A DNA stretch of 64,000 bases from Candidatus Aminicenantes bacterium (GTDB lineage: Bacteria; Acidobacteriota; Aminicenantia; Aminicenantales; Saccharicenantaceae), in NCBI GenBank assembly GCA_963773685.1, contig CAVZBY010000011.1, forward strand, positions 661,532 through 725,531, in the 5' to 3' direction. The position numbers and the translations under genes were made by a program. A model generated the notes under the pieces. It searched no databases, had not been told where the DNA came from, and saw nothing but the letters and a program-made list of their open reading frames with translations. The first letter of the stretch is position 1, and each line of letters starts with the position of its first letter. This document shows positions 20,069 through 60,926 of this stretch, one piece after another.

Positions 20069-20093
20069 GGGCCGCCGCGACGAGGAGATCAGC

Positions 20094-20393
20094 ATGACCC
20101 GAAAAAAAGACGTCAAAAAGATCGTTTTCGCGACCGAGAAGGAGATGCCGGTCACGGCCATGTCCCTCGGCTCCATGCTCTACAACAAGACGGGGGCCTG
20201 GCGGAACATCCGGCCCGAGGTCGACCGGTCCAAGTGCATCCAGTGCGGCATCTGCTGGAAGTTCTGCCCCGACGCGTCCATCGACATCGTCGACAACTGG
20301 CCGGTGGTGGACCTCGTGTACTGCAAGGGATGCGGCATCTGCGCCGAGGAATGCCCCACGAAGTGCATCGCCATGGTCGAGGAGGAAAAATGA
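20094..20393 (+). CDS. porD: 2-oxoacid:ferredoxin oxidoreductase delta subunit (2x[4Fe-4S])
   Basis: CIQCGICWKFCP and CKGCGICAEECP motifs in a 99-aa protein. Confidence 0.85.
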   Translation: MTRKKDVKKIVFATEKEMPVTAMSLGSMLYNKTGAWRNIRPEVDRSKCIQCGICWKFCPDASIDIVDNWPVVDLVYCKGCGICAEECPTKCIAMVEEEK

Positions 20394-21545
20394 AAAAGGT
20401 CATCATGGGCAACCACGCCCTGTCGTACGGGGCCAAACTCGCCCGTTCGCAGGTCATCGCAGCCTATCCCATCACGCCCCAGACGCAGGTCGTGGAGCTT
20501 CTCTCGGAGATGTGCGCCGACGGGACGCTCGACGCCAAGTTCATCAAGGTCGAATCCGAGCATTCGGCCATGGCGGCCAGCCTCGGCGCCTCGCTCGCCG
20601 GGGCCCGGACCTTCACGGCCACCTCGTCCCAGGGGCTCGCCCTGATGCATGAGATGCTTCACTGGGCCTCGGGCGGCCGCCTGCCCGTCGTCATGGGCGA
20701 CATCAACCGGGCCATGGCCCCGGGCTGGAGCATCTGGACCGACCAGAACGACAGCCTCTCCCAGAGGGACACCGGATGGATCCAGTTCTATTGCGCCTCG
20801 AACCAGGAGGTCGTGGACACGGTCATCCAGGCCTTCAAGGTCTCCGAGAAGATGCTCATCCCGAGCATGGTCATCCTGGACGCGTTCGCCCTCTCCCACA
20901 CCTATGAGGTCGTCGACATCCCGGACCAGGCGAAAGTGGACGCTTACCTGCCGCCGTTCCGCCCGAAATATAAGCTGACGACCGCCGATCCGCACGCCTT
21001 CTTCGGACTGACCGCCCCCGAGCATTATATGGAGCTCCGCTACAAGCTCCAGAAGGACATGGAGCTCGTGGCCGGCCTGGTCGAGGAGACCGGCCGGGAA
21101 TACGAGGAGGTCTTCGGACGACGTTCTCGGCCTCGTGGACGCCTACCGGTGCGACGACGCCGATTTCCTGTTCATTACCTCCGGAACCGCCGGCTACACG
21201 GCCCGGGTCGCCGTGGACGATCTTCGCGCCGAAGGGGTCAAGGCCGGGAACCTGAGGATCATCCTCTTTCGGCCATTCCCGTTCGACACCGTCCGCCAGT
21301 ATCTGGGGAAGGTCCGCAAGGCGGCCGTGCTCGACCGGAACCTTTCCTACGGCCACCACGGCATATTTTACCAGGAAGTGAAATCGGCCCTTTACGGGTA
21401 TGACGGGATGCCGCCGGTCCACGGCTACGTCGCCGGGCTCGGCGGACGCGACATCACGCCCGGGGACTTCAAGGACATCTACCGGTCGGCGTCGGCCGCG
21501 GACCGGCCCACCGAGGAGATCGGCTGGATAGGAGTCAAGAGATGA
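20390..21545 (+). CDS. porA: 2-oxoacid:ferredoxin oxidoreductase alpha subunit (one frame break near 21115-21135)
   Basis: MKKVIMGNHALSYGAKLARSQVIAAYPITPQT...ESEHSAMAA...TATSSQGLALM..., continued by ORF 21135..21545 (DADFLFITSGTAGYTARVAVDDLRAEGVKAGNLRIILFRPFP). Confidence 0.85.
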
Positions 21546-25435: not shown

Positions 25436-26693
25436 GAAAGCTGTTCGTCCCGATCCTCTTCGCCTTTTGCGTCTTCCCGGCGCGCGTTTCGGCCCTGCCT
25501 CCCGTACCGGACGAGCCCGTCGAGATCGTGAGCGTGGCCGCGACGGAGGGGAACCTGCGGATCCTGGCCGAAATTCAGGCCGACGTCCTGAAAGCGGCCG
25601 GGAAGGTCTATATCGTGGCGACCGCCGGGGATCTCGGGCGGCTGTCGGCGCGGGGCGTTCCGTTCGCAGTGGAAACGGCCCATTTCGCCCCGGCGCGGCC
25701 CTTCGCGATATCCGCGGCGGGCGGCATCAACGGGGATTTCCATTCCTATCGGGAGCTCGAGGCCGATCTCAAGGCGCTCGAAGCCGACCATCCCGGGACC
25801 ATGAAGCTGTTCACGATAGGCACGAGCCTCGAAGGACGGAACATTTACGCCATGAAGATCAGCGACGCCCCGGAGCGGGACGAGAACAAGCCCGGAGTTC
25901 TCTTCCTCGGTTGCCATCACGCCCGCGAATGGATCTCGGTCGAGGTGCCCCTTCTCCTGGCCCGGTATCTGGCCGAGAACGCCGTATCGGACCGGGCCGT
26001 CGCGGACCTCGTCGCCCGCAGTGAGGTTTGGATCGTCCCTCTGGTCAATCCGGACGGCCTCGAATACTCCATCGATGTCTATCGTTATTGGCGGAAGAAC
26101 CGCCGGGCCAACGCGGACGGAAGCTTCGGCATCGACCTCAACCGGAACTACGGATACAAGTGGGGCGTCGACGACATCGGGTCGAGCCCGTCGCCCCTGT
26201 CGGAGGCCTTCCGGGGACCTTCGGCCTTTTCCGAGCCCGAGACCCGGGCCGTGCGGGACCTGTTCCTGCGCCGGGACTTCCGGGCCGTCGTCTCCTACCA
26301 CAGCTTTTCCCAGTCCATCCTCTATCCATGGGGCTACGCCGACGCCCCCACCGACAGGGACGGCCTGCTCCGGGAGATCGGGCTGGAAATGGCTGGGCTC
26401 ATCGAGGCCGTCAACGGGCGCGCCTATGCCTGCGGGCGCTCGGCGGCATCGCTCTATCTGACGAACGGGGATACGACGGATTGGACGTTCGCCGCGTCCG
26501 GCGTCCCCTCGTACACCATCGAGCTTCCCCCATCGACATCGAGCACGGCGGATTCTTCAACGCCGAGAGGGAGATCGACTCCATCTTCCGCGAGAACCTC
26601 CCCGCCATGCTTTCCCTGGCCCGGCGGGCGGCCGGTCAGGCGGGAAAGACCGGGATCGCCCGCGGGAAGAAGGCGCCCGGACCGTTCCGTTGA
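25432..26693 (+). CDS. M14-family zinc carboxypeptidase, secreted (frame break near 26530)
   Basis: Signal peptide, then ...FHSYRELEADL...GTSLEGRNIYAMKISD...VLFLGCHHAREWIS...PLVNPDGLEYS...WRKNRR...GIDLNRNY...SYHSFSQSILYPWGY...TDWTF. The tail lies in the frame of ORF 26028..26693. Confidence 0.85.
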
Positions 26694-37372: not shown

Positions 37373-38276
37373 TTATTCCTGCTGCCGGGGCTTGAGCTTG
37401 CTCAGCGATTCCTTGAGCCAGGTGACATATTCGGGCCGCTGGATCAGGCTCTCGACCCGAAAGACCCTGATGCCCGCCAGCCTGCCTTCGTTGACCTTGG
37501 CGACGAAGAAATCCATCAGTCCCTTGAACTCCTGTTCGGTCAGCCACCGATGTTCACTGCCCGCGTCGAGATACAGGGATCCCAGGATCGGCTTCCCCGG
37601 GAATTTGTCCAACACCCGGGCGAGCAGCTGTTCGTGGTTCTGGAGCTCTTTCGTGTCGTAGAAGCTGAAGATGATCGCGTCGATGTCGAAATCGTACGGC
37701 TTGTCCAGATCGGCCGGCGGGTAGCAGGGGGCCCAGATCGCCAGGCGCGGATTGATGGCCTTGGCCTGGGCGATGATGCGGCGGAATTCGTCGGCGGAAT
37801 GGCCTCCCTCGGCGGGCTTCTCCGTCTCTTCGTAGAAGTCGTTGAGGTACAGGCCGATGATCTGCTTGTGGGTGAGCGACAGCTCCGCGATCCAGGCCGC
37901 GTGCCGCATGGCCTGGTCGAACGTCCATCCCCAGATGCCCCGTCTCGATCTTGGCGATGATGTACTTGACGCCCGGCGTGTTCATGTGCCGGTACATCAG
38001 GGTGTCCTCGAGCTTCATCGTCCCGTCATAAGGCTTGTCGTGAGTCCAGACCGTGTTGAACCCGACCTCCTTGACCATCGGAGCGATGTCCACCTTGGAG
38101 CTGTGCTCCCAGACGGAGATCAGGGGCTCGGCAGGGAAGTCGATCGCGTCGGTCGCGAGCACAGGGGCGACGCACACCACCGATAGGATCCCGGCCGCGA
38201 GCGCCGATCGCAGAATGCCCCTCGGCAACGCGAACCTTCCGGTCTGAAGCATCGATCGATCACGGGTTCTTGACAT
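37373..38276 (-). CDS. Secreted hypothetical protein, possibly glycoside-hydrolase-like TIM barrel (frame break near 37925)
   Basis: SD GGAGGT before the ATG at 38276. MSRTRDRSMLQTGRFALPRGILRSALAAGILSVVCVAPVLA looks like a Tat/Sec signal. The C-terminal piece is ORF 37373..37909. The functional guess is weak. Confidence 0.5.
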
Positions 38277-41156: not shown

Positions 41157-42482
41157 TTACACAACAGTCAGAAACGGGGCTTTCTCCCCTTCGTTGTCCT
41201 GCGTGGAAACTTGATAATTATCCCAGCCCTCTGACTTGTCTTTGCTCGAGGTCGTCCCAATTCTGTAGTACAGCTTGTCAGATGCCGTGGACAACTTTTC
41301 CCAGACCGGACCGGGCAATTTGTATGACGGGCCGGTGAAGCGCTCACTGTCATTGTATGATCCGTAGAAGTTCTCTTCGGTTCGTTGGGAACCATTAGCC
41401 ACGTAATCGAACAACTCCGGTCCATTACAGATCTCGAAGATATAGTATTTGTTCGCGCCCGTCACGACCGAAAAAGACGGCGGGTCATCTGCACCTGGCC
41501 ATGTGGTCGGCCCCTTAACGGATGGCCCCGTAGGCGTCGTGGAACTCGTCGCAATTTCGAATGGTCTTTGGCTCTCAAACCCGGGATCGGCGACGCCGAC
41601 GACGAAATAGTTTGGCGTTTGAGTCGGTGGCATTCTACGACAAATCTCCGTATGCAACTTGCGATAGTCTCCCGAGAAGTTCCCGTGGTCCCAAACCTCC
41701 AGTAGCTTCTCAGTGAATAAGCCATTGTTAATCCCGTCTGAGGACAACTGATTATCCTGGCAACCGGAGATCAACACGAGCGAAGCTTGAAGAGGCGTGG
41801 CGCGTCCGCGTGGAACCATCCACTGTGCAGCATCGTACAGGTCCTTATGCCTCAAGTACGCGGCCATGGACTCGGCCGGCGTCAGTGCTCGGAATCGAGG
41901 GGGCTGTTCCTTGATCGCTCTAGCTTTCCTCATAGGATCAGTCCCTCCGAAGAACAAGGTGTAGTTATCATGCAAAGAAACAAAGAATTCTTTCGGTCGC
42001 GGCGTCCCAGTCGTAGTCGGAGCAAATGTCGGAGTTCTTCCCGGCAGTAGCAATATGGACTTGAGAACCGTACCGCTGTGACAACTATCCGAGAGTGCTA
42101 ATATGCGCACACCAGCGCCAAACTGCGACCACAGTTGAGATAACTCATCGTCTATCAGCATTCGATCATACAGGCACCAAGTTTCGTCATAGCCATCATC
42201 CTCATCCCCGTTCGCGTCCGGCACCTGTCCTCCGTGCCCGGAGTAGGTGAGAAAGAGCATATCACCTGCCCCGAGTACTTTTGCAGCTTTGCCGATTTCC
42301 TGGACCACACGGCTATAAGTTGCATCATAAGTCAGTATTATGGTCGATGTGTACCCCAAAGAATCAGCCAACTCTTTCATTGATATGGCGTCGTTTTCAC
42401 ACCCGGCCAAAAGACCATCGACGCCATAGGAGGCTTTATCAATGAGGTTCAGACCTATGTGGATGGATATTCCTTTTATCAT
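41157..42482 (-). CDS. Caspase-like (peptidase C14) protease with an unknown ~250-aa C-terminal region
   Basis: SD AAGGAG before the ATG. IHIGLN...GCENDAISM...MLFLTYSGHGGQVPD...VRILALSDSCHSGTV gives the His (SGHG) and Cys (DSCHSG) dyad in canonical order and spacing. Confidence 0.8.
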   Translation of the reverse strand: MIKGISIHIGLNLIDKASYGVDGLLAGCENDAISMKELADSLGYTSTIILTYDATYSRVVQEIGKAAKVLGAGDMLFLTYSGHGGQVPDANGDEDDGYDETWCLYDRMLIDDELSQLWSQFGAGVRILALSDSCHSGTVLKSILLLPGRTPTFAPTTTGTPRPKEFFVSLHDNYTLFFGGTDPMRKARAIKEQPPRFRALTPAESMAAYLRHKDLYDAAQWMVPRGRATPLQASLVLISGCQDNQLSSDGINNGLFTEKLLEVWDHGNFSGDYRKLHTEICRRMPPTQTPNYFVVGVADPGFESQRPFEIATSSTTPTGPSVKGPTTWPGADDPPSFSVVTGANKYYIFEICNGPELFDYVANGSQRTEENFYGSYNDSERFTGPSYKLPGPVWEKLSTASDKLYYRIGTTSSKDKSEGWDNYQVSTQDNEGEKAPFLTVV

Positions 42483-42564: not shown

Positions 42565-43746
42565 TCACTGTATGGTCTCCCATTCGAGACTAACTACGTT
42601 GCCGTTCTTCTTAAGGTCCAAAGACCTCCACGATCCGAACTGTTGTAGCCCCGCGCAATCGATTCTGGTAACCTGATATACGAGGGTGCGGTTTGCCTGG
42701 TATGTTGTGAGAGGTAGCACCAGATCGACCGCCGTCACTGGTGCAAGGTCGTTCACTTCGGCACGATGTACGTCGGGCAGATCATTCAGCCGCGCCGCGA
42801 TCTGGAGCGATTTAAGTCCGCGGTTCCCTAGATTAATTAGATTGACGAAAACAACATTCGTCGCGATATCTTCGATTGCATTTCTCAGTTCAGGGAGAGT
42901 CGTGCCACCACCACTGACGAGAGCGTATACTGGGATGACAGTCGTGGTCCCGTCCGGCACACCCACGTCAATTGATCCGCCAGCCATCACGGTGGCTTCC
43001 ACAGGTGCCCTGACAGCGGTGCCCCCAGCAATCGCATATATCTCTCGTATATTGACGGCCCCGATGAGGTTGTCCGTAAGGGAACTCCCAGGGGTCACGT
43101 TCGCACTCTGGCCCGTACCTGAGGGGCCAGGGATTCTGTTGATGAGCCGGGCGGATGCTCCTTGAACCATGACTTCAATCGGACCGGCTTCCCACGGGCC
43201 AACCACTGTCTGAAGGTCGAGAATTATCGAACCTCGAAGCGTCGTCTGATCGGGCAAGCGTGTCACGATATCACACGCAATTCCCGTGAACTCGATCATC
43301 TTCTGAAGCAAGGGCACGTCTTCCAGCTTTGAAATCAAACTCACCTGAAAGCCGTCCCAGAGCTTCGTCACCTCGACTGTAATCTCAGATTGTGCCATCC
43401 CGGCAATTGCCCAATCATACGAGGCGTCACCGGGGATCTCAGTCAGAAAGTCGATCACTGGGTCCATCGCATACGATGTAAGCTTAGTCCTTAGTTCGTA
43501 CCGGACAAAGAGAGGCATGTCTGGCTGGACCGTCGCGAGAAGAACCGCCTTATTGTTGGTCGGTGTTTCAGGATCGACCGTAGAGTACAGGCAAATCGCC
43601 GCACGGTACGATCGGTCCCCATCGTTCGGACCAAAACGGGCTATGCGGTAGGTCCGAGGTACGACCAAAAAACGCCCAGGTTGTTGTAAGGACCGGTATA
43701 CCGTGTAAAGGTCGCTCTGCAGGAACGTCATCCTTAATCTCTTCAT
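42565..43746 (-). CDS. Hypothetical protein (~393 aa), operon gene 3
   Basis: The ATG (MKRLRMTFLQ...) lies in an ATGA context at 43743-43746. Its N-terminus carries the motif FLVVPRTYRIARFGPNDGD, shared with the 573-aa protein. It overlaps the tail of ORF 43568..46090. Confidence 0.65.
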   Translation of the reverse strand: MKRLRMTFLQSDLYTVYRSLQQPGRFLVVPRTYRIARFGPNDGDRSYRAAICLYSTVDPETPTNNKAVLLATVQPDMPLFVRYELRTKLTSYAMDPVIDFLTEIPGDASYDWAIAGMAQSEITVEVTKLWDGFQVSLISKLEDVPLLQKMIEFTGIACDIVTRLPDQTTLRGSIILDLQTVVGPWEAGPIEVMVQGASARLINRIPGPSGTGQSANVTPGSSLTDNLIGAVNIREIYAIAGGTAVRAPVEATVMAGGSIDVGVPDGTTTVIPVYALVSGGGTTLPELRNAIEDIATNVVFVNLINLGNRGLKSLQIAARLNDLPDVHRAEVNDLAPVTAVDLVLPLTTYQANRTLVYQVTRIDCAGLQQFGSWRSLDLKKNGNVVSLEWETIQ

Positions 43747-46090
43747 ACTGGCGGAAAGTCGTTTGGCCCAGGCGAAAAGCATCCTGACAGCCGACCGCAA
43801 CAGCACCCTGGTCGGTCTCCTGTCTATAGAGAGCACCAAGGGTGTTACATGGGTAGAGGATCTCTGTCGACTGTTGGCGCCCCATTATCTGAACTGCATA
43901 TGAGGTCAGACGCAGTCGATCGGCAACGACTGCCGTGAGGTTCAATTGTGGACTCACCGCAATGACAGGGTGTATGGAAACATATTGGCCGGTTGCCAGC
44001 GCAACTGTCGACGCTGGCCCCTGGGCAGCAGAAGCTTCCGAAGGGCGCTCGCTCGTTCCCGAAGCCGGAACTTCCCGGTTGTAGTGAAGGGTAACAGCAG
44101 GATGACAGTAAGAGACCGACTCGGCGTCAACAAAGGTGCGGCCATCAAGGTCGTGAGCCTGGGCAGCCGAGAAGGCTACCGGCGTAACAGCCTCCTTGCC
44201 CCCATGTGCCACAAGTAGGCTGAGCCTGGGGACAGCAACGTAGGCTTTGAAAGAATAGCTCGTTACAAGCCTGGCTGGCTCCGTCTGGTACCCAGGATAG
44301 GCCAACGCTCCATAGCAGGCACGGGCCCAATCATCGATGAGGTACAGGGTGACTACTGCCGTCTCACCCAGTCGCTCAAGAGTCGTCGGGAAAGACTGGA
44401 TTCGCGTGGCGCCGGCCGCGTCTCTGAAGGGCAAAACGAATTGAACTGACAGGCCATCAACAGCAACAGGCGACGCTTTCACCGATCCTAGCCGTTTCAG
44501 GGCTTCGGCTGTCGGAGTCGACATTGCGGGACGGAGAGTGAATCGGATTGTCGTCTCGATACCGGGTTGGCCGGACGCCGTGTGTCCCTTCTGGCGGAAG
44601 GAATATAGAAAGGGGCTATTCTCGGAATCACTGTTCGGCGACGGGAGTACCGGCTCAAAACTCGGCGCATACCAATATTTGCCGTTCGTAATTCGATCCT
44701 TCCAGATTGGCGAAGACGGTTCGTCCACTACCGGAAGACTCTGATCGACCCCGTGGGCCCCAGGCAGAGAACTCGGGCGATCGATGACGACTTCGTTTGA
44801 AGTAAAGTGGTGCAGGTTCGGCGCCACCTGAATAGTCTGCGCTACATGTCCACCCGAAACAAGCGCCGAGGCCGGAACGACAGCATTGCGCCCAGGCGTC
44901 ATTTTGGACCTCAGTGTCCGGTAGCCGTTTCCGTCTGCCGCCAGCTCAATGGATCGTGGACGAACGGTCGACTTTATACCAATCGAAGGCAAAGAACGCA
45001 GCCTGCGTGGTGCAGGCTCGAAGCCCGCAGTTTGCGAGTCCACGCACACCAAGCGAATATGTGAATCCGTCGGTCGGCCGCGCAACGAATCGCCGAAGAT
45101 CCGATCAAGCGAAGTCTCCATTTCGAGAGTGCGTTCGCCCACGCGCGCGATGTCCTGCTCAAAAGCAAGGGCAAATGCACTGCCCGGACGCCGCTTCAGC
45201 CTGTAGCAATTCTGAGGGGAGGCCGGTTCCAGTTCGGGAGTGAGACACTCAATAATAACCGAGGCGGCCCTTCGAAAAGGCGTCACTAACTGGTCTATGT
45301 CAATCGCCCTTTCTGCCTCCTGGCTGCCATCAGGATTCAAAACATGGTACTGAACCACCTTCGCGTCAATGAGATCGCGGAGCATTGTGCCAACGTCTGT
45401 GAGTGTCAGAGGAGCATCCGCATCGAGATGATCCGAAACCCAATCAGAGATCCAATCGAAAATCTCCTGCCAGATGCCGGAGACCTGGACTCTCTGAGTG
45501 ACTGCCGCCGTCCGGAACTGAACGTGACAGCGGACCTTGAGACGCGAAGGAACTCCGGAAAGAGCGGCGACGACCTCCACGGTGTTTTCCCGATCCAGCT
45601 GTGCCTGCAGAGAGGCGCGAGGTGCGATTCCTTCAGAGAGAATGGGGCCGGAGAGAATATCTCCTTCGAATCCCACAAGTGTAAAGGTCGCCGGTCGGAC
45701 GTAAATCGGACGATAGCTCTCAAGGGAGTCTGCGTCGGCGCCGGTAAGAGCACTCGACTCAGGGATAACCCATCCAACTGAGAGCGTTAGAACACCCTGC
45801 TGGATGAGATGGTGAATGGAGCTCTCTTCGGGCAACGGTCGGCGGCTAAGCATGATGGTGAGTGACAGGATAGGTGTTCCCACGCTATCGCAGCACAGCG
45901 CCGGAACACCGGGGAGAACGTGGAACAACCCGGGACGGGACGCGACCGCAAGGCTCTGGTTCATCTCGTCCGGCAGCACTAGTACCGTGAGCATCTGAAT
46001 GCTTCCGGTCTTCAGTTCCCGCACCTCCCATGGGGCACTGCCGGACGGGCCACAGCGGTCACGCTCTGCCAAAACGATACGCCTCTCCAC
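43568..46090 (-). CDS. Hypothetical large protein (up to 840 aa), operon gene 2; true stop probably near 43743
   Basis: Long uninterrupted ORF. The 46090 start is GTG without an obvious SD, and an alternative ATG exists at 45994 (MLTVLVLPDE...). The last ~55 codons overlap gene 3 out of frame and look non-coding. Confidence 0.65.
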   Translation of the reverse strand: MERRIVLAERDRCGPSGSAPWEVRELKTGSIQMLTVLVLPDEMNQSLAVASRPGLFHVLPGVPALCCDSVGTPILSLTIMLSRRPLPEESSIHHLIQQGVLTLSVGWVIPESSALTGADADSLESYRPIYVRPATFTLVGFEGDILSGPILSEGIAPRASLQAQLDRENTVEVVAALSGVPSRLKVRCHVQFRTAAVTQRVQVSGIWQEIFDWISDWVSDHLDADAPLTLTDVGTMLRDLIDAKVVQYHVLNPDGSQEAERAIDIDQLVTPFRRAASVIIECLTPELEPASPQNCYRLKRRPGSAFALAFEQDIARVGERTLEMETSLDRIFGDSLRGRPTDSHIRLVCVDSQTAGFEPAPRRLRSLPSIGIKSTVRPRSIELAADGNGYRTLRSKMTPGRNAVVPASALVSGGHVAQTIQVAPNLHHFTSNEVVIDRPSSLPGAHGVDQSLPVVDEPSSPIWKDRITNGKYWYAPSFEPVLPSPNSDSENSPFLYSFRQKGHTASGQPGIETTIRFTLRPAMSTPTAEALKRLGSVKASPVAVDGLSVQFVLPFRDAAGATRIQSFPTTLERLGETAVVTLYLIDDWARACYGALAYPGYQTEPARLVTSYSFKAYVAVPRLSLLVAHGGKEAVTPVAFSAAQAHDLDGRTFVDAESVSYCHPAVTLHYNREVPASGTSERPSEASAAQGPASTVALATGQYVSIHPVIAVSPQLNLTAVVADRLRLTSYAVQIMGRQQSTEILYPCNTLGALYRQETDQGAVAVGCQDAFRLGQTTFRQYEEIKDDVPAERPLHGIPVLTTTWAFFGRTSDLPHSPFWSERWGPIVPCGDLPVLYGRS

Positions 46091-46177
46091 TCAACGCGAC
46101 GCGAGAGCCAAACCCTTGGAAACCAAATCTCACCTTTATCACCAAATCACGTCGTCAGATATAACGACGCGCGCCTA

Positions 46178-46903
46178 TTATGTTTTCCCGCGCTTGCCGG
46201 TTTCAGCCCGCTTGGCCGGCGGAACGACGGATACCGCGGGCCCCGTACTTTTGCTCTTCCCTTCCGCAGAGGCAGTCCGAGTTGGCGGAGTCACTTCAAA
46301 CCCACTGATCTCAATAGCCCGAGCGGCAGCCTCCTCCTGCGGCAGTGCTCGCGAACTGGGCGGAACCTCATTGCCACCGGAGGTCACGGGCGGTGGCGTC
46401 GCCGAAGCATCTGTCGATATCCGCGTGGGGAGCAAGAAGTCCTTCAGTTCTAGAGAACGGTTCTTAACCTCTTTGTCACTCGGTCGCGGAACTTGCACTA
46501 CAAGCGGTCCATTTCCATTCGATTCGACCCATTCTCCGGTCCATTCCTGTCCACCCGTAAACAGGCCGCCTTTTACCACAACCCTCACCTGGTATTTAAA
46601 CTTGGGTATGAAATCGAGCTGACCCGTAAAGATCGTCCAAAAACGCGGCTCATCCTGATCGGCAAAACTCCAGACAAACTTGGTAATCGGTCGATCTGCG
46701 CCGTCCCCGGTCTTTCCAAGGCACTGGAACGACACCTCAACCATCTGCTTTGCGTCTTCAAGGACAACGCCGAGCGTCACGGGACCGACAGACAGTTTGC
46801 CGGCAGAGTCGGCACGAACCTCTATCGCATTTTCATTGGTGAGAACGTCCGTTTGGGTCGGGATCAAGATCGAGTATATTCTTTTCCACGAAGCAGCGGG
46901 CAT
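46178..46903 (-). CDS. Hypothetical; probably the C-terminal continuation of the 573-aa ORF across a frame break near 46840-46850
   Basis: Coding-looking from ...IPTQTDVLTNENAIEVRADSAGKLSVGPVTLGVVLED... to a Pro/Ser/Thr-rich, Lys/Arg-terminated tail. No SD precedes the only internal ATG (46903). Confidence 0.5.
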   Translation of the reverse strand: MPAASWKRIYSILIPTQTDVLTNENAIEVRADSAGKLSVGPVTLGVVLEDAKQMVEVSFQCLGKTGDGADRPITKFVWSFADQDEPRFWTIFTGQLDFIPKFKYQVRVVVKGGLFTGGQEWTGEWVESNGNGPLVVQVPRPSDKEVKNRSLELKDFLLPTRISTDASATPPPVTSGGNEVPPSSRALPQEEAAARAIEISGFEVTPPTRTASAEGKSKSTGPAVSVVPPAKRAETGKRGKT

Positions 46904-48554
46904 GCGGATAGGCAAGTTCGTCAGGAGGTTCTGCGAAATGAATTTGCCTTTTAATGAATGTCTGATCGGGGGTCCAGCCGGCAGGTGGGTTTTCCACATG
47001 TGCCTGGTCCTTCTTTTCCTCTGACCAGGTCCAGGCAGCATCGGCCGGATCGGTTGCCTGGAACACATGGGCTTTCCACTGGATATCCCCCTTGGTGCTC
47101 GGATACCCGACCTGAGCCGACAAAAACGCCACTGGCTCGCCAATCCATTTGCGACTTGGATCAGGCCAGTTGACCACCGGCTTGACAATCCGACTGTTCT
47201 TACGGTCCCAATCACTCAGATACAGAGTGCTGAAATACTTGTTTTCAGCTTGAGGATCGGCCTTGATATCATTGTAGAAGCCTTCAAGAGTGCCGCTCAC
47301 AACTGTGTCCTGCAAATATGCCATTTCGCGCGTTTCATCGTATTCGAGGTTAAGATGGGTCTCGTCTCTGCGATACTTCAGGGCCATACCTACTCCCCAC
47401 GGACCAGACCCGCTGCTAGCCTTCGCAGGCTCGACATTGGGAGCCGGCGGTTCGAAGATCATCTTCTGCGCTGCCTCCATGAATTTCTGATAAACAAGGT
47501 CCGTCTTCTTGTCGATGTCCTGCTGCATTTTTTCGGCGCCCGGAATAGTAGGATCGATTTCCACAACGACCTTCATTATGCCCTTAGTGCGCATATTGTT
47601 GATCTCGACTTTAATGTCGGCAGAGGCCCATAGATAGTGACCAGACATCGCCGACGAGAAGTGGCTGAAAATCTTGTCCCACTCCCCGGTGATCTTAATG
47701 TGGACAAGAGGAGCCCAGAACTTGATTTTCATGTCCTGTCGAACCACCATCGCGCTGTAGGTGCCGTGAAAGCTTGCCCATAGAAGCGCAGCCGGCAAAC
47801 TGCCGACTAACCCGGAGAAAGCGTTTTCAGCAAGCAGGTCAATCGAACCTGCCCCCTGACCCTGGAGATTTACGTACCACGGGTCCAAATTCGTGCCGGC
47901 GGTATCCCGCGTGAGCGGAACAGAACGCGGGAATTTCATGGCGGGTGAGGCCAATGGTGTCAGATTGAATGACCGCATCACCGCAATGTCGGCGCCCCGA
48001 GGCGGGGCAGGTGGTGCCGCAGACCCCGGTGTCACGCCCGACCCGGCAAGGGCCGTGGAGGTGCCCATAGGAGAGTTGATTGTCGGCACGGAGCCGTTGG
48101 GAAGCGGCGACAAGTTGGTCAGCAACGTCACGTTTGATACGACCGGCATCGGTCTGAACATAGGGCGCGCACTAGTGCGCCATCCCCAGTACTTGTCGTT
48201 ATCTCCCCGAAAGATCTCGGCCAGCTGATCCTCAGCCGTTTTGAGAACGTCCGGTGGCGGCGCAGCCGTCGTCGAGAAGCTAATGACCCCCCCGGCTACC
48301 TCGCGCTCTCCGGCCACTCCAACTGTGCTGTTCTCACTCTGAACGCCGACAAAGTGGATCATTCGAAACTTGAAGTCGCCATTGCCCCCGTGGCGAGCCA
48401 ACCGAACGTAGTTAGGCATCCAATAGTATACCGGTGGTTTGCCTTGCCGCTGTAAATCGTCATTGTGAAGATCGGGGAGATATAGCATCTCATATCCAGC
48501 CATAGCAATATGCTGGAATCCCCCTGCGAAGATCGGTCCTACTGGGTCAGCCAT
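46833..48554 (-). CDS. Hypothetical large protein (573 aa as read; ~790 aa if joined to 46178..46903), operon gene 1
   Basis: SD AGGAGG 7 nt before the ATG at 48554. MADPVGPIFAGGFQH...PPVYYWMPNYVRLARHGGNGDFKFRMIHF.... No family recognised. Confidence 0.7.
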   Translation of the reverse strand: MADPVGPIFAGGFQHIAMAGYEMLYLPDLHNDDLQRQGKPPVYYWMPNYVRLARHGGNGDFKFRMIHFVGVQSENSTVGVAGEREVAGGVISFSTTAAPPPDVLKTAEDQLAEIFRGDNDKYWGWRTSARPMFRPMPVVSNVTLLTNLSPLPNGSVPTINSPMGTSTALAGSGVTPGSAAPPAPPRGADIAVMRSFNLTPLASPAMKFPRSVPLTRDTAGTNLDPWYVNLQGQGAGSIDLLAENAFSGLVGSLPAALLWASFHGTYSAMVVRQDMKIKFWAPLVHIKITGEWDKIFSHFSSAMSGHYLWASADIKVEINNMRTKGIMKVVVEIDPTIPGAEKMQQDIDKKTDLVYQKFMEAAQKMIFEPPAPNVEPAKASSGSGPWGVGMALKYRRDETHLNLEYDETREMAYLQDTVVSGTLEGFYNDIKADPQAENKYFSTLYLSDWDRKNSRIVKPVVNWPDPSRKWIGEPVAFLSAQVGYPSTKGDIQWKAHVFQATDPADAAWTWSEEKKDQAHVENPPAGWTPDQTFIKRQIHFAEPPDELAYPHARCFVEKNILDLDPDPNGRSHQ

Positions 48555-54372: not shown

Positions 54373-54416
54373 GAGAGTAGCCCTGGGGGGACTCGAACCC
54401 CCGACCTGCGGATTAG
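54373..54416. repeat. Island right boundary: 44-bp perfect direct repeat (attR-like) overlapping the 3' part of tRNA-Arg
   Basis: Identical to 40709-40752. Covers 5 nt beyond the tRNA 3' end, the acceptor 3' strand, the T-arm, the variable loop and the 3' anticodon stem, up to the anticodon. Confidence 0.9.
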
Positions 54417-54452
54417 GAATCCGTCGCTCTATCCATACTGAGCTACAGGGCT
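54378..54452 (-). tRNA. tRNA-Arg (anticodon CCT)
   Basis: Hand-folded 75 nt: AGCCCTG TA GCTC AGTATGGATA GAGC G ACGGA TTCCTAA TCCGC AGGTC GGGGG TTCGAGT CCCCC CAGGGCT A. The 7-bp acceptor, D and T stems are all paired. There is one A.C pair in the anticodon stem. No encoded CCA. Confidence 0.9.
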
Positions 54453-60004: not shown

Positions 60005-60926
60005 TCAGGGTTTCAGCCCTTTCGCGGCCTGGAGGAACCGCGCCGTCCGGACATCGAGCGTCTTGGGCACGGCCTTCGTTCCCTTGATCAGGGAGTTGAC
60101 CTTGCCGAGCCTGTCCTCGGCCGAGGGATGCGTCTTGAACCAGCCCTTGGCCCCGCCCGCGGCCGGACCGCCGGTCATCGTCTTCAGGAACCGGGCCAGC
60201 CCGTTCGGATCGTAGCCGGTCGCCACCGCGTACTTGACGCCCAGCTTGTCGGCTTCGTACTCGTACTTGCGGTCATAGCCCTTCTCGACCAGGCTCTCGA
60301 CGATATCGCCCAGGACGTTCTCGAAGATGCCCGTGAGCTGGGCCAGCTCCTTGGAGCCGTAACGGGTCGACGGCCTCCTTGCCCAGGATCTTGAAGGCGT
60401 CGACCAGCCGCGATTTCTTGATGGACGCCAGCCCGTGCTTGGCCGAGACGTGGCCGATCTCGTGGGCCAGGATCGAGGCCATCATCTCCTCGTCCTTGCA
60501 GCGCTTGAGGAGCCCCTTGGTGATGAAAACGAACCCGCCGGGGGCGGCCAGGGCGTTGACCTCGTCGGTGTCCAGGATGAGGAAATGGTACCCGCCGTAG
60601 GTCTCCGGCCGGTCGGAGGAGTAGCTGATCGCCCGGCCGCAGGTGTTCACATAATCCGTGAGGCCCGTGTTCCCGAGGACCTTGTATCTGGAGAGGATCA
60701 GGGCCGAAACCGCCCGTCCGATATAGTATTCCTCCTGTTCGGTGATCTCGGAAAAGGTCGTCCGCACGGCCTCGCTCGTCTTGACGATGGAATCCTTGTC
60801 CTTCTCGGAGATCTTCCCCGTATCGCCCAGGACCTTGGCCCCTTCCTGGACGACGGAGCACTGGGCGAAGAGGAGGCCCGCGAGCGCGGCGGTCGCGACC
60901 ATGGAGCCGGAGCGGAGCGCCTTCAC
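60005..60926 (-). CDS. M48-family metallopeptidase lipoprotein (frame breaks near 60230-60380)
   Basis: Signal/lipobox ...LLFAQCS. ...NALAAPGGFVFITKGLL...MMASILAHEIGHV (HExxH). C-terminal piece ...KGWFKTHPSAEDR. Confidence 0.75.

Follow-up and report, generated by a model that had tools for sequence, protein, structure and literature searches.

Does a short motif that recurs in the large proteins of a single operon mark the duplication of a protein module? The question arises from the minus strand of a 64,000-nucleotide stretch of contig CAVZBY010000011.1 of a Candidatus Aminicenantes bacterium (the window), where an initial annotation had read three large proteins, encoded by genes 1, 2 and 3, and had linked genes 1 and 3 by such a motif. 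The explanation that we consider probable for the locus as a whole is that the operon has two large genes, for proteins A and B, each carrying one extra base, that A and the N-terminal part of B are paralogous, and that the motif of gene 3 is a separate look-alike hairpin. The three genes of the operon would then encode A (about 791 amino acids, aa), B (about 1174 aa) and a caspase-fold protease. The open reading frames (ORFs) concerned are:

46833-48554, minus strand: the gene 1 ORF, 573 aa
46178-47215, minus strand: ORF overlapping gene 1, 345 aa
43568-46090, minus strand: the gene 2 ORF, 840 aa
42565-43839, minus strand: the gene 3 ORF, 424 aa, overlapping gene 2 by 272 nt
41157-42482, minus strand: third gene of the operon, a caspase-fold (C14) protease, 441 aa

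Two genes, each broken by one extra base

More than 460 relatives of gene 1 were found in many phyla, 48-67% identical to it and all unnamed, and nearly all of them are 750-850 aa long as compared with 573 aa for the gene 1 ORF. A scan with one genome per species yielded 79 A-family loci, and the operon counts given here rest on the 64 of these in which the sequence continues for 5.5 kb or more beyond A. Each of the 64 has B after A, and in 62 of them B is one uninterrupted ORF. The remaining two copies are broken at several points and lie on contigs from a different series of metagenome-assembled genomes (MAGs), named MFD; these contigs hold the only other split copies of A or B. Encoding of the C-terminal third of B by an ORF of its own was therefore not the pattern of the related loci. 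The A proteins measure about 780 aa and the B proteins about 1150 aa across these loci; in two of them (L001 and L003), where A has 778 and 800 aa and B has 1182 and 1121 aa, the two genes and one for a Peptidase_C14 protein are consecutive. Alignment of the window's ORFs with these homologues gave the following parts:

46848-48554, minus strand: upstream part of A (gene 1 residues 1-569); the family alignment ends after DLDPDPNG
46843-46849, minus strand: A frameshift site, heptamer GACGTTC; four bases (46844-46847) stand for one residue, one being extra
46178-46843, minus strand: downstream part of A, about 221 codons plus stop, in a frame one base on
43727-46090, minus strand: upstream part of B (gene 2 residues 1-788), collinear with the B proteins of L001 and L003 (1121-1182 aa) as far as QYEEIKDD
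43723-43729, minus strand: B frameshift site, heptamer GACGTTC; four bases (43723-43726) stand for one residue, one being extra
43568-43722, minus strand: out-of-frame read-through tail of the gene 2 ORF, non-coding in that frame
42565-43722, minus strand: downstream part of B (gene 3 from residue 40), B residues about 790-1174

The A junction is flanked by DLDPDPNG (ending at 46848) and LTNENAIEVRAD (starting at 46843), and A rejoins its family one base on, in the ORF at 46178-47215, at LTNENAIEVRADSAGKL; from there the protein aligns to A-family residues about 555-778 (VRADSAGKL...YQVRVVVKG...GNGPL). The B junction is flanked by QYEEIKDD (ending at 43727) and LQSDLYTVYRS (starting at 43722), and B rejoins its family one base on, in the frame of gene 3, at LQSDLYTVYRSLQQPGRFLVVP. 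The tail of the gene 2 frame, VPAERPLHGIPVLTTTWAFFGRTSDL, had no counterpart in any B homologue, whereas the gene 3 frame does match the homologues. The initial annotation had argued that the latter frame is the coding one at 43600-43671, and this is borne out by homologues that run through the region as one continuous chain (GCQDAxxLGQTxYxQYE....LQSPxYRVYRSLQQPGRFLVxP); a shorter B from Paraliomyxa is likewise uninterrupted across the junction, and the gene 3 part is collinear with the C-terminal third of the B homologues. Once joined, A and B have lengths in line with their families.

Based on the homologue alignments, the four-base junctions and the single-ORF state of B elsewhere, we concluded that genes 2 and 3 are one B gene and that their 272-nt overlap is an artefact of the frameshift. 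This gene model, which the comparisons show, leaves two large proteins where three had been proposed, gene 3 being the downstream part of a B split by a +1 frameshift. It also moves the gene 3 motif, which had been placed near an N-terminus, to about residue 807-830 of the approximately 1174-aa B protein, counted from the junction. The practical lesson is that ORF overlaps and N-terminal positions are not to be trusted in this error-prone assembly.

Frameshifts occur elsewhere in the window too, six having been found in all. Four of these fall exactly on GACGTTC in the sense of the broken gene, namely the A and B sites and those at 21120-21126 (plus strand) and 37919-37925 (minus strand), and all four need a +1 correction. 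The core gene PorA (pyruvate:ferredoxin oxidoreductase alpha subunit) is split over two frames at 20069-21545 (plus strand), with the switch at 21120; its POR_N domain lies in the ORF at 20069-21403 and its PFOR_II domain in that at 21012-21545. An M14-type peptidase is broken (-1) at a run of five C near 26520 (about 26500-26530, plus strand), and an M48-type HExxH peptidase is broken (+1) near 60370 (about 60340-60400, minus strand), near GACCCGTTAC. Three further candidate sites (20029, 63712 and 63778) proved to be ordinary gene boundaries.

The window holds 29 copies of the heptamer where 11 would be expected, and the heptamer is read as GAC GTT C in B and at 37919 and as nGA CGT TCT in A and at 21120. 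The presence of two codon phases indicates an effect at the level of DNA rather than of the ribosome; a programmed +1 frameshift or quadruplet recoding was rejected on this ground and because the homologues are encoded in one frame. Our guess is that the GACGTTC breaks stem from a k-mer-specific consensus error. Three genome-wide screens, based on phase changes of the GC content at third codon positions and on ORF rescue, showed no enrichment of indels at the heptamer (47 of 751 sites against a background of 5.8%; rank 1072 of 3671; 23 events against 26 expected), and these screens were low in power because they were swamped by ordinary gene junctions.

We consider assembly error the likelier origin of the frameshifts in A and B, because core genes of the same window are also frameshifted and because the assembly, in spite of having only 14 contigs, reaches just 84.8% marker completeness. 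Alternatively, the frameshifts could be real mutations, the operon being a decaying pseudogene cluster or one in which B is now two polypeptides, with the C-terminal part restarting at an ATG that overlaps the break (43729-43731). The operon does lie in a low-GC stretch (45-59% GC as opposed to 64% in the flanks), on an island at a tRNA-Arg(CCT) gene (54377-54452) that carries an IS3 transposase, and the cargo of islands at tRNA genes with a transposase often decays; the in-frame ATG, too, stands exactly at the B break. This alternative is nevertheless unlikely, given that core metabolic genes of the same contig are broken alike, even on the same heptamer, that no split at the B break point was seen in any other genome examined, and that, in the models, the break falls within a folded part of the protein, in a loop joining strands, and not in the disordered linker at residues 680-738; A also has a disordered linker, at 151-203.

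Paralogy of A and the first third of B

Family alignments were built from 32 A sequences and 35 B sequences, and a larger B set of 162 sequences (effective number of sequences, Neff, 5.1) was taken from the 758 hits that a search of 1.84 billion representatives gave. With BLASTP, gene 1 and gene 2 aligned over A 260-429 and B 175-342 (E 2e-6), and hhalign profiles extended the match to A 23-426 with B 29-324 when the smaller B set was used (probability 96.8%, E 2.2e-10) and to A 5-419 with B 7-341 with the larger one (probability 98-99%, E 2.6e-14). The N-terminal parts taken separately also aligned, A 22-109 pairing with B 33-116 (E 1.3e-9 to 3.3e-10). Judged by these sequence comparisons, A and the first third of B are paralogues.

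This relationship gives the gene 1 motif a partner in B other than the one proposed. The strings at issue, of which those of gene 1, gene 3 and mid-gene 2 are present just as the initial annotation had quoted them, are:

48357-48428, minus strand: gene 1 motif YYWMPNYVRLARHGGNGDFKFRMI, A residues 43-66; predicted strand VYYWMP, hairpin VRLAR..G.GD and strand KFxxIHF of the N-terminal domain
45848-45928, minus strand: LFHVLPGVPALCCDSVGTPILSLTIML, the true B counterpart of the gene 1 motif, B (gene 2) residues 55-81
44597-44680, minus strand: mid-B echo KYWYAPSFEPVLPSPNSDSENSPFLYSF, B residues 471-498
43600-43671, minus strand: gene 3 motif FLVVPRTYRIARFGPNDGDRSYRA, B residues about 807-830 (834-857 in the homologue P0124); predicted strand RFLVxP, strand xYRI, turn and strand

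In the hhalign columns, the gene 1 motif (PVYYWMPNYVRLAR..G.GDFKFHLLHF) stands opposite the B N-terminal string PPLFYYLPPTPLLAHD..G.PVFSLALLL, so that VYYWMP..VRLAR...KFHLLHF of A is paired with LFYYLP..LLAH...VFSLALL of B. AlphaFold2 models of an A homologue (P0005; predicted local distance difference test, pLDDT, 73) and of a B homologue (P0124, whose numbering is used for the B model; pLDDT 79) agree on the elements of this region and their order, namely strand, strand, helix, strand-Pro, hairpin, strand, strand, helix. The gene 1 motif would accordingly be read as the strand-Pro-hairpin-strand core of an alpha/beta domain at the N-termini of both proteins, with its B partner at 45848-45928. 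The idea that a duplicated module links the large proteins of the operon therefore holds, and the shared module includes the gene 1 motif, but the partner is gene 2 residues 55-81 and not the motif of gene 3. A motif chosen by eye had picked the wrong partner, and the real paralogy of A and B, including LFHVLPGVPALCCDSVGTPILSLTIML, had been overlooked.

The gene 3 motif and a possible triplication

Each motif is conserved in its own family, as alignment columns show (32 sequences for A, 162 for B). Within the A family, V50, A53, G60 and F64 never vary, and 88-97% of sequences have P47, R51 and R54; in the B family, the gene 3 motif has P839 in 100%, R846 in 99%, F835 in 97%, I844 in 89%, Y842 in 83% and R843 in 45%, and in the mid-B echo W473, Y474 and P476 are invariant or nearly so. 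The positions conserved in both families are the hydrophobic run, the proline and h-R-[LI]-small-R (h, hydrophobic). Of the pattern first put forward, then, the hydrophobic-P-R-[LI]-R core is conserved, and the G-x-N-x-G-D half is variable in B (848-853). Absence of the motif from the homologues, which would have counted against the proposal, is not what we see: it is present in those of A and B alike. A pattern made from the family-conserved positions found both motif sites and one other in the 3.16 million residues of the genome's open frames, a rarity that does not amount to a test because the pattern was written after both sites had been seen.

The likeness of the gene 1 and gene 3 motifs to each other does not reach significance. 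BLASTP of gene 1 against gene 3 gave the motif as its best match (17 identical residues in 52; E 0.087, a value that holds for this one comparison), and gene 2 against gene 3 gave no match. When the N-terminus of A was aligned by hhalign with the last third of B, the motif came out on top (A 34-65 with B 829-857), never with significance: P was 0.35, 0.41 and 0.28, and the probability 0.1-0.2%, across runs with 32 A and either 35 or 162 B sequences, with or without secondary structure. Boosting hhalign with model-derived secondary structure, a looser -mact setting and 162 sequences left the motif pairs still not significant. The pairing of genes 1 and 3 on which the duplication had been argued thus lacks significant profile similarity. 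The gene 3 motif would rather be a different, equally conserved strand-Pro-hairpin within the C-terminal third of B, and its resemblance to that of gene 1 would come from their being buried structural elements of one type, in which four hydrophobic or aromatic residues and a proline are followed by an x-x-h-R-[LI]-small-R strand. The likeness is not demonstrably more than a common type of hairpin, and common descent cannot be shown from it.

The structure models point the same way. In the A homologue, the gene 1 motif is modelled as strands E42-47 and E64-70 (pLDDT 84-91) and in the B homologue, the gene 3 motif is modelled as strands E834-839, E841-844 and E860-865 (pLDDT 87-93); all four motif sites, the B N-terminal site and mid-B echo included, are predicted to be confidently ordered strands (pLDDT 82-94). 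Since ordered strands argue for a structural role over an exposed docking or cleavage peptide, we infer from the models that the motifs are probably structural and not recognition elements.

Several observations nevertheless weigh against treating the gene 3 motif as a mere look-alike. For the N-terminal (N), middle (M) and C-terminal (C) sites, the top hhalign alignments A(N)/B(M), B(M)/B(C), A(N)/B(C) and B(N)/B(C) were mutually consistent in the register of the motif, being in register and transitive over the four sites (A42 with B471, B471 with B834, and A42 with about B837). With 162 B sequences, B(M) against B(C) gave P 0.036-0.052 over 70 columns. Over the runs with the smaller and the larger B set, A(N) against B(M) gave P 0.13-0.5 in motif register, the lower value over 55 columns with 162 B sequences and secondary structure. 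Behind each motif strand the AlphaFold2 models place a strand, a strand, a helix, two to five strands and a helix at similar spacing, and in a crude alignment of secondary-structure strings B(N) scored z 4.1-4.2 with B(M) and with B(C), as compared with 4.6 for the true homologues A(N)/B(N). The consistent registers, the B(M)/B(C) value and the order of secondary-structure elements would fit an old internal triplication that is beyond proof by sequence methods.

In such an ancient triplication, B would contain a unit of about 120-400 residues three times in tandem and A would contain it once, each copy beginning with the strand-Pro-hairpin (B 53, 471 and 834; A 42), and the gene 1/gene 3 motif would be a true, diverged paralogous signature; the family-conserved residues (four hydrophobic positions, P, h, R, [LI], small, R) do coincide. 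We regard this as somewhat unlikely. No pair involving B(C) or B(M) was significant even with 162 sequences, the secondary-structure scores of the remaining pairs were at background (z -0.6 for A(N)/B(M), 0.8 for A(N)/B(C) and 1.3 for B(M)/B(C)), the best B(N)/B(M) hhalign match (P 0.01) lay outside the motif register, and the B(C) motif does not open the region behind the disordered linker but sits about 95 residues into it. The three-dimensional comparison of the motif units consisted of the secondary-structure strings of two models only.

Foldseek, run with both models against PDB and with the B model also against BFVD, returned only generic tandem immunoglobulin (Ig)-like matches with template modelling (TM) scores below 0.3. 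These matches, to pilins, giant adhesins and the MG domains of complement C3, concern the C-terminal beta-sandwich domains of A and B and are uninformative about the motif-bearing domains; their TM-scores were 0.05-0.3 with a root-mean-square deviation (rmsd) mostly of 20-80 Å, and, in contrast to the tandem Ig-like proteins, no signal peptide is apparent by eye in A or B. The sole compact structural match to the B model was an uncharacterised 417-aa protein of Medusavirus stheno T3 (BFVD A0A7S7YF07; 161 columns, rmsd 4.8 Å, 19% identity, Foldseek probability 1.00), for which the part of B covered was not reported.

Two other parts of A are of note. Residues 248-406 of P0005 are modelled with moderate confidence (pLDDT 53-87) as three beta strands, each 23-42 residues long, and a helix of 28 residues, a region that A has in common with B, where it is shorter; the long predicted hairpins recall pore-forming or oligomerising states, and Foldseek returned no match for them. 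The last 90 or so residues of A (about 46178-46450, minus strand) are a long, variable Pro/Ala/Gly-rich tail, modelled as disordered (pLDDT < 50), which in many members ends in a short conserved G-[WYF]-x-x-x-x-P element; from its sequence, this could be a docking or cleavage tail.

The protease partner and related systems

The third gene of the operon encodes a protein with Peptidase_C14 (PF00656; 3.8e-23, 82.8 bits against a cut-off of 21.4), and its translation holds the dyad motifs SGHG and DSCHSG. Of the 64 loci, 39 have a C14 caspase and 10 have an S8 subtilase in third place. Residues about 313-441 of our protease (41160-41546, minus strand) form a C-terminal domain of about 125 aa that belongs to no known family and has the signature PPxF..YYxxE..ELF..NFYxSW..LP..W..L..LYYR. 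The same domain is found in two to three copies in the S8 third genes of other A-B operons (E down to 7e-19), the loci listed with the repeat being L012, L022, L023, L026, L028, L029, L031, L034, L067 and L080. Four third genes were scanned against Pfam, and three of them are S8, one with an additional Peptidase_M15_3 and one with an Rv2525c-like glycoside-hydrolase domain. Natural fusions of B to a protease also occur: P0201 (2127 aa) has B at 1-1170 and Peptidase_S8 at 1492-1778, and P0281 (1454 aa) has B followed by Peptidase_C14 at 1069-1332. We infer that A and B are substrates or a scaffold of the protease.

Retention of the C-terminal domain while the catalytic domain is swapped suggests that it binds something constant, such as A or B, and the motif itself might be what is bound. 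According to this alternative, h4-P-x2-h-R-[LI]-x-R would be a short linear motif, either a docking or cleavage site for the protease or a ligand of its C-terminal adaptor domain, and the similarity between A and B would be convergent or kept by the common binding partner. R51 and R54 of A and R846 of B are conserved, the protease is a constant companion of A-B, in some cases joined to the C-terminal end of B as in the two proteins above, and the C-terminal domain persists through switches between C14 and S8. The protease segment GDEDDGYDETW, after the catalytic His, may resemble the acidic segment of Arg/Lys-specific metacaspases. We find this alternative highly improbable, since both motifs are modelled as ordered beta strands (pLDDT 84-93) and not as exposed loops, the true B(N) homologue of the A motif has no R-x-x-R, R843 is found in only 45% of B sequences, and S8-type loci would not share a specificity for basic residues. 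A combination in which B is a triplicated A module, the hairpins of which are the element docked or cut by an interchangeable protease by way of the adaptor repeat, is likewise improbable to us; if true, the motif would be the signature for recognition in a widespread protease-linked system not yet described.

On the island, SIR2-like and HEPN-like genes adjoin the operon, and the island had no match when 40 related genomes were searched at the DNA level. The A proteins are 45-84% identical between phyla, and the operon occurs in many bacterial phyla and some archaea. Polaromonas, Sphingomonas and Amycolatopsis are among the cultured bacteria that carry it intact. A-family loci were seen in MAGs of Methanosarcina, Methanotrichaceae and Nitrososphaerales (L026, L029 and L036) and on plasmid p25C of Ralstonia sp. 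25C (L070); B and a third gene follow A in L026, L029 and L070, and the contig of L036 ends inside B. These archaeal and plasmid loci point to horizontal spread.

A role in antiviral defence has recently been shown for protease-effector modules (Evans et al., PMC12642450). The A-B operon resembles them in that a caspase-like or serine protease adjoins and is co-inherited with partner proteins that belong to no family, that the protease class is interchangeable (C14 and S8 in our loci), and that distribution is patchy over bacterial and archaeal phyla. It differs in that the partners here are two very large paralogous beta-rich proteins and not small propeptide effectors or enzymes, A and B being absent from the partner list given there and far larger, and in that the operon has no sensor nucleoside triphosphatase (NTPase); proteolytic activation of the partners and a role in defence would be putative here. 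Matches to the known protease-associated effectors (bGSDM, EACC1, Pepco, MBL and alpha/beta-hydrolase) were rejected, no sequence-family match being found, and NCBIfam 'caspase_w_EACC1' scored 18.9 bits against a cut-off of 140. The conflict systems of multicellular prokaryotes treated by Kaur, Burroughs, Iyer and Aravind in 2020 reportedly use caspase-type and other peptidases as swappable effectors with constant accessory components, and are said to be built around NTPase switches and small adaptor domains. The A-B operon is similar in linking a swappable peptidase domain to constant components, and dissimilar in having no NTPase, its constants being A, B and the beta-type repeat of about 125 aa on the protease.

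A and B matched nothing in Pfam, PADLOC, NCBIfam, PHROGs or the PDB sequence profiles, and the literature search found the general protease-effector framework and no description of A or B. The combination of A, B and a protease is strongly conserved and horizontally spread, with no family, fold or literature match found for either large protein. What can be offered as a starting architecture is the paralogy of A and B(N), the B-protease fusions and a constant adaptor repeat joined to a catalytic domain that is swapped, and the A-B-protease operon may be a further kind of protease-gated module.

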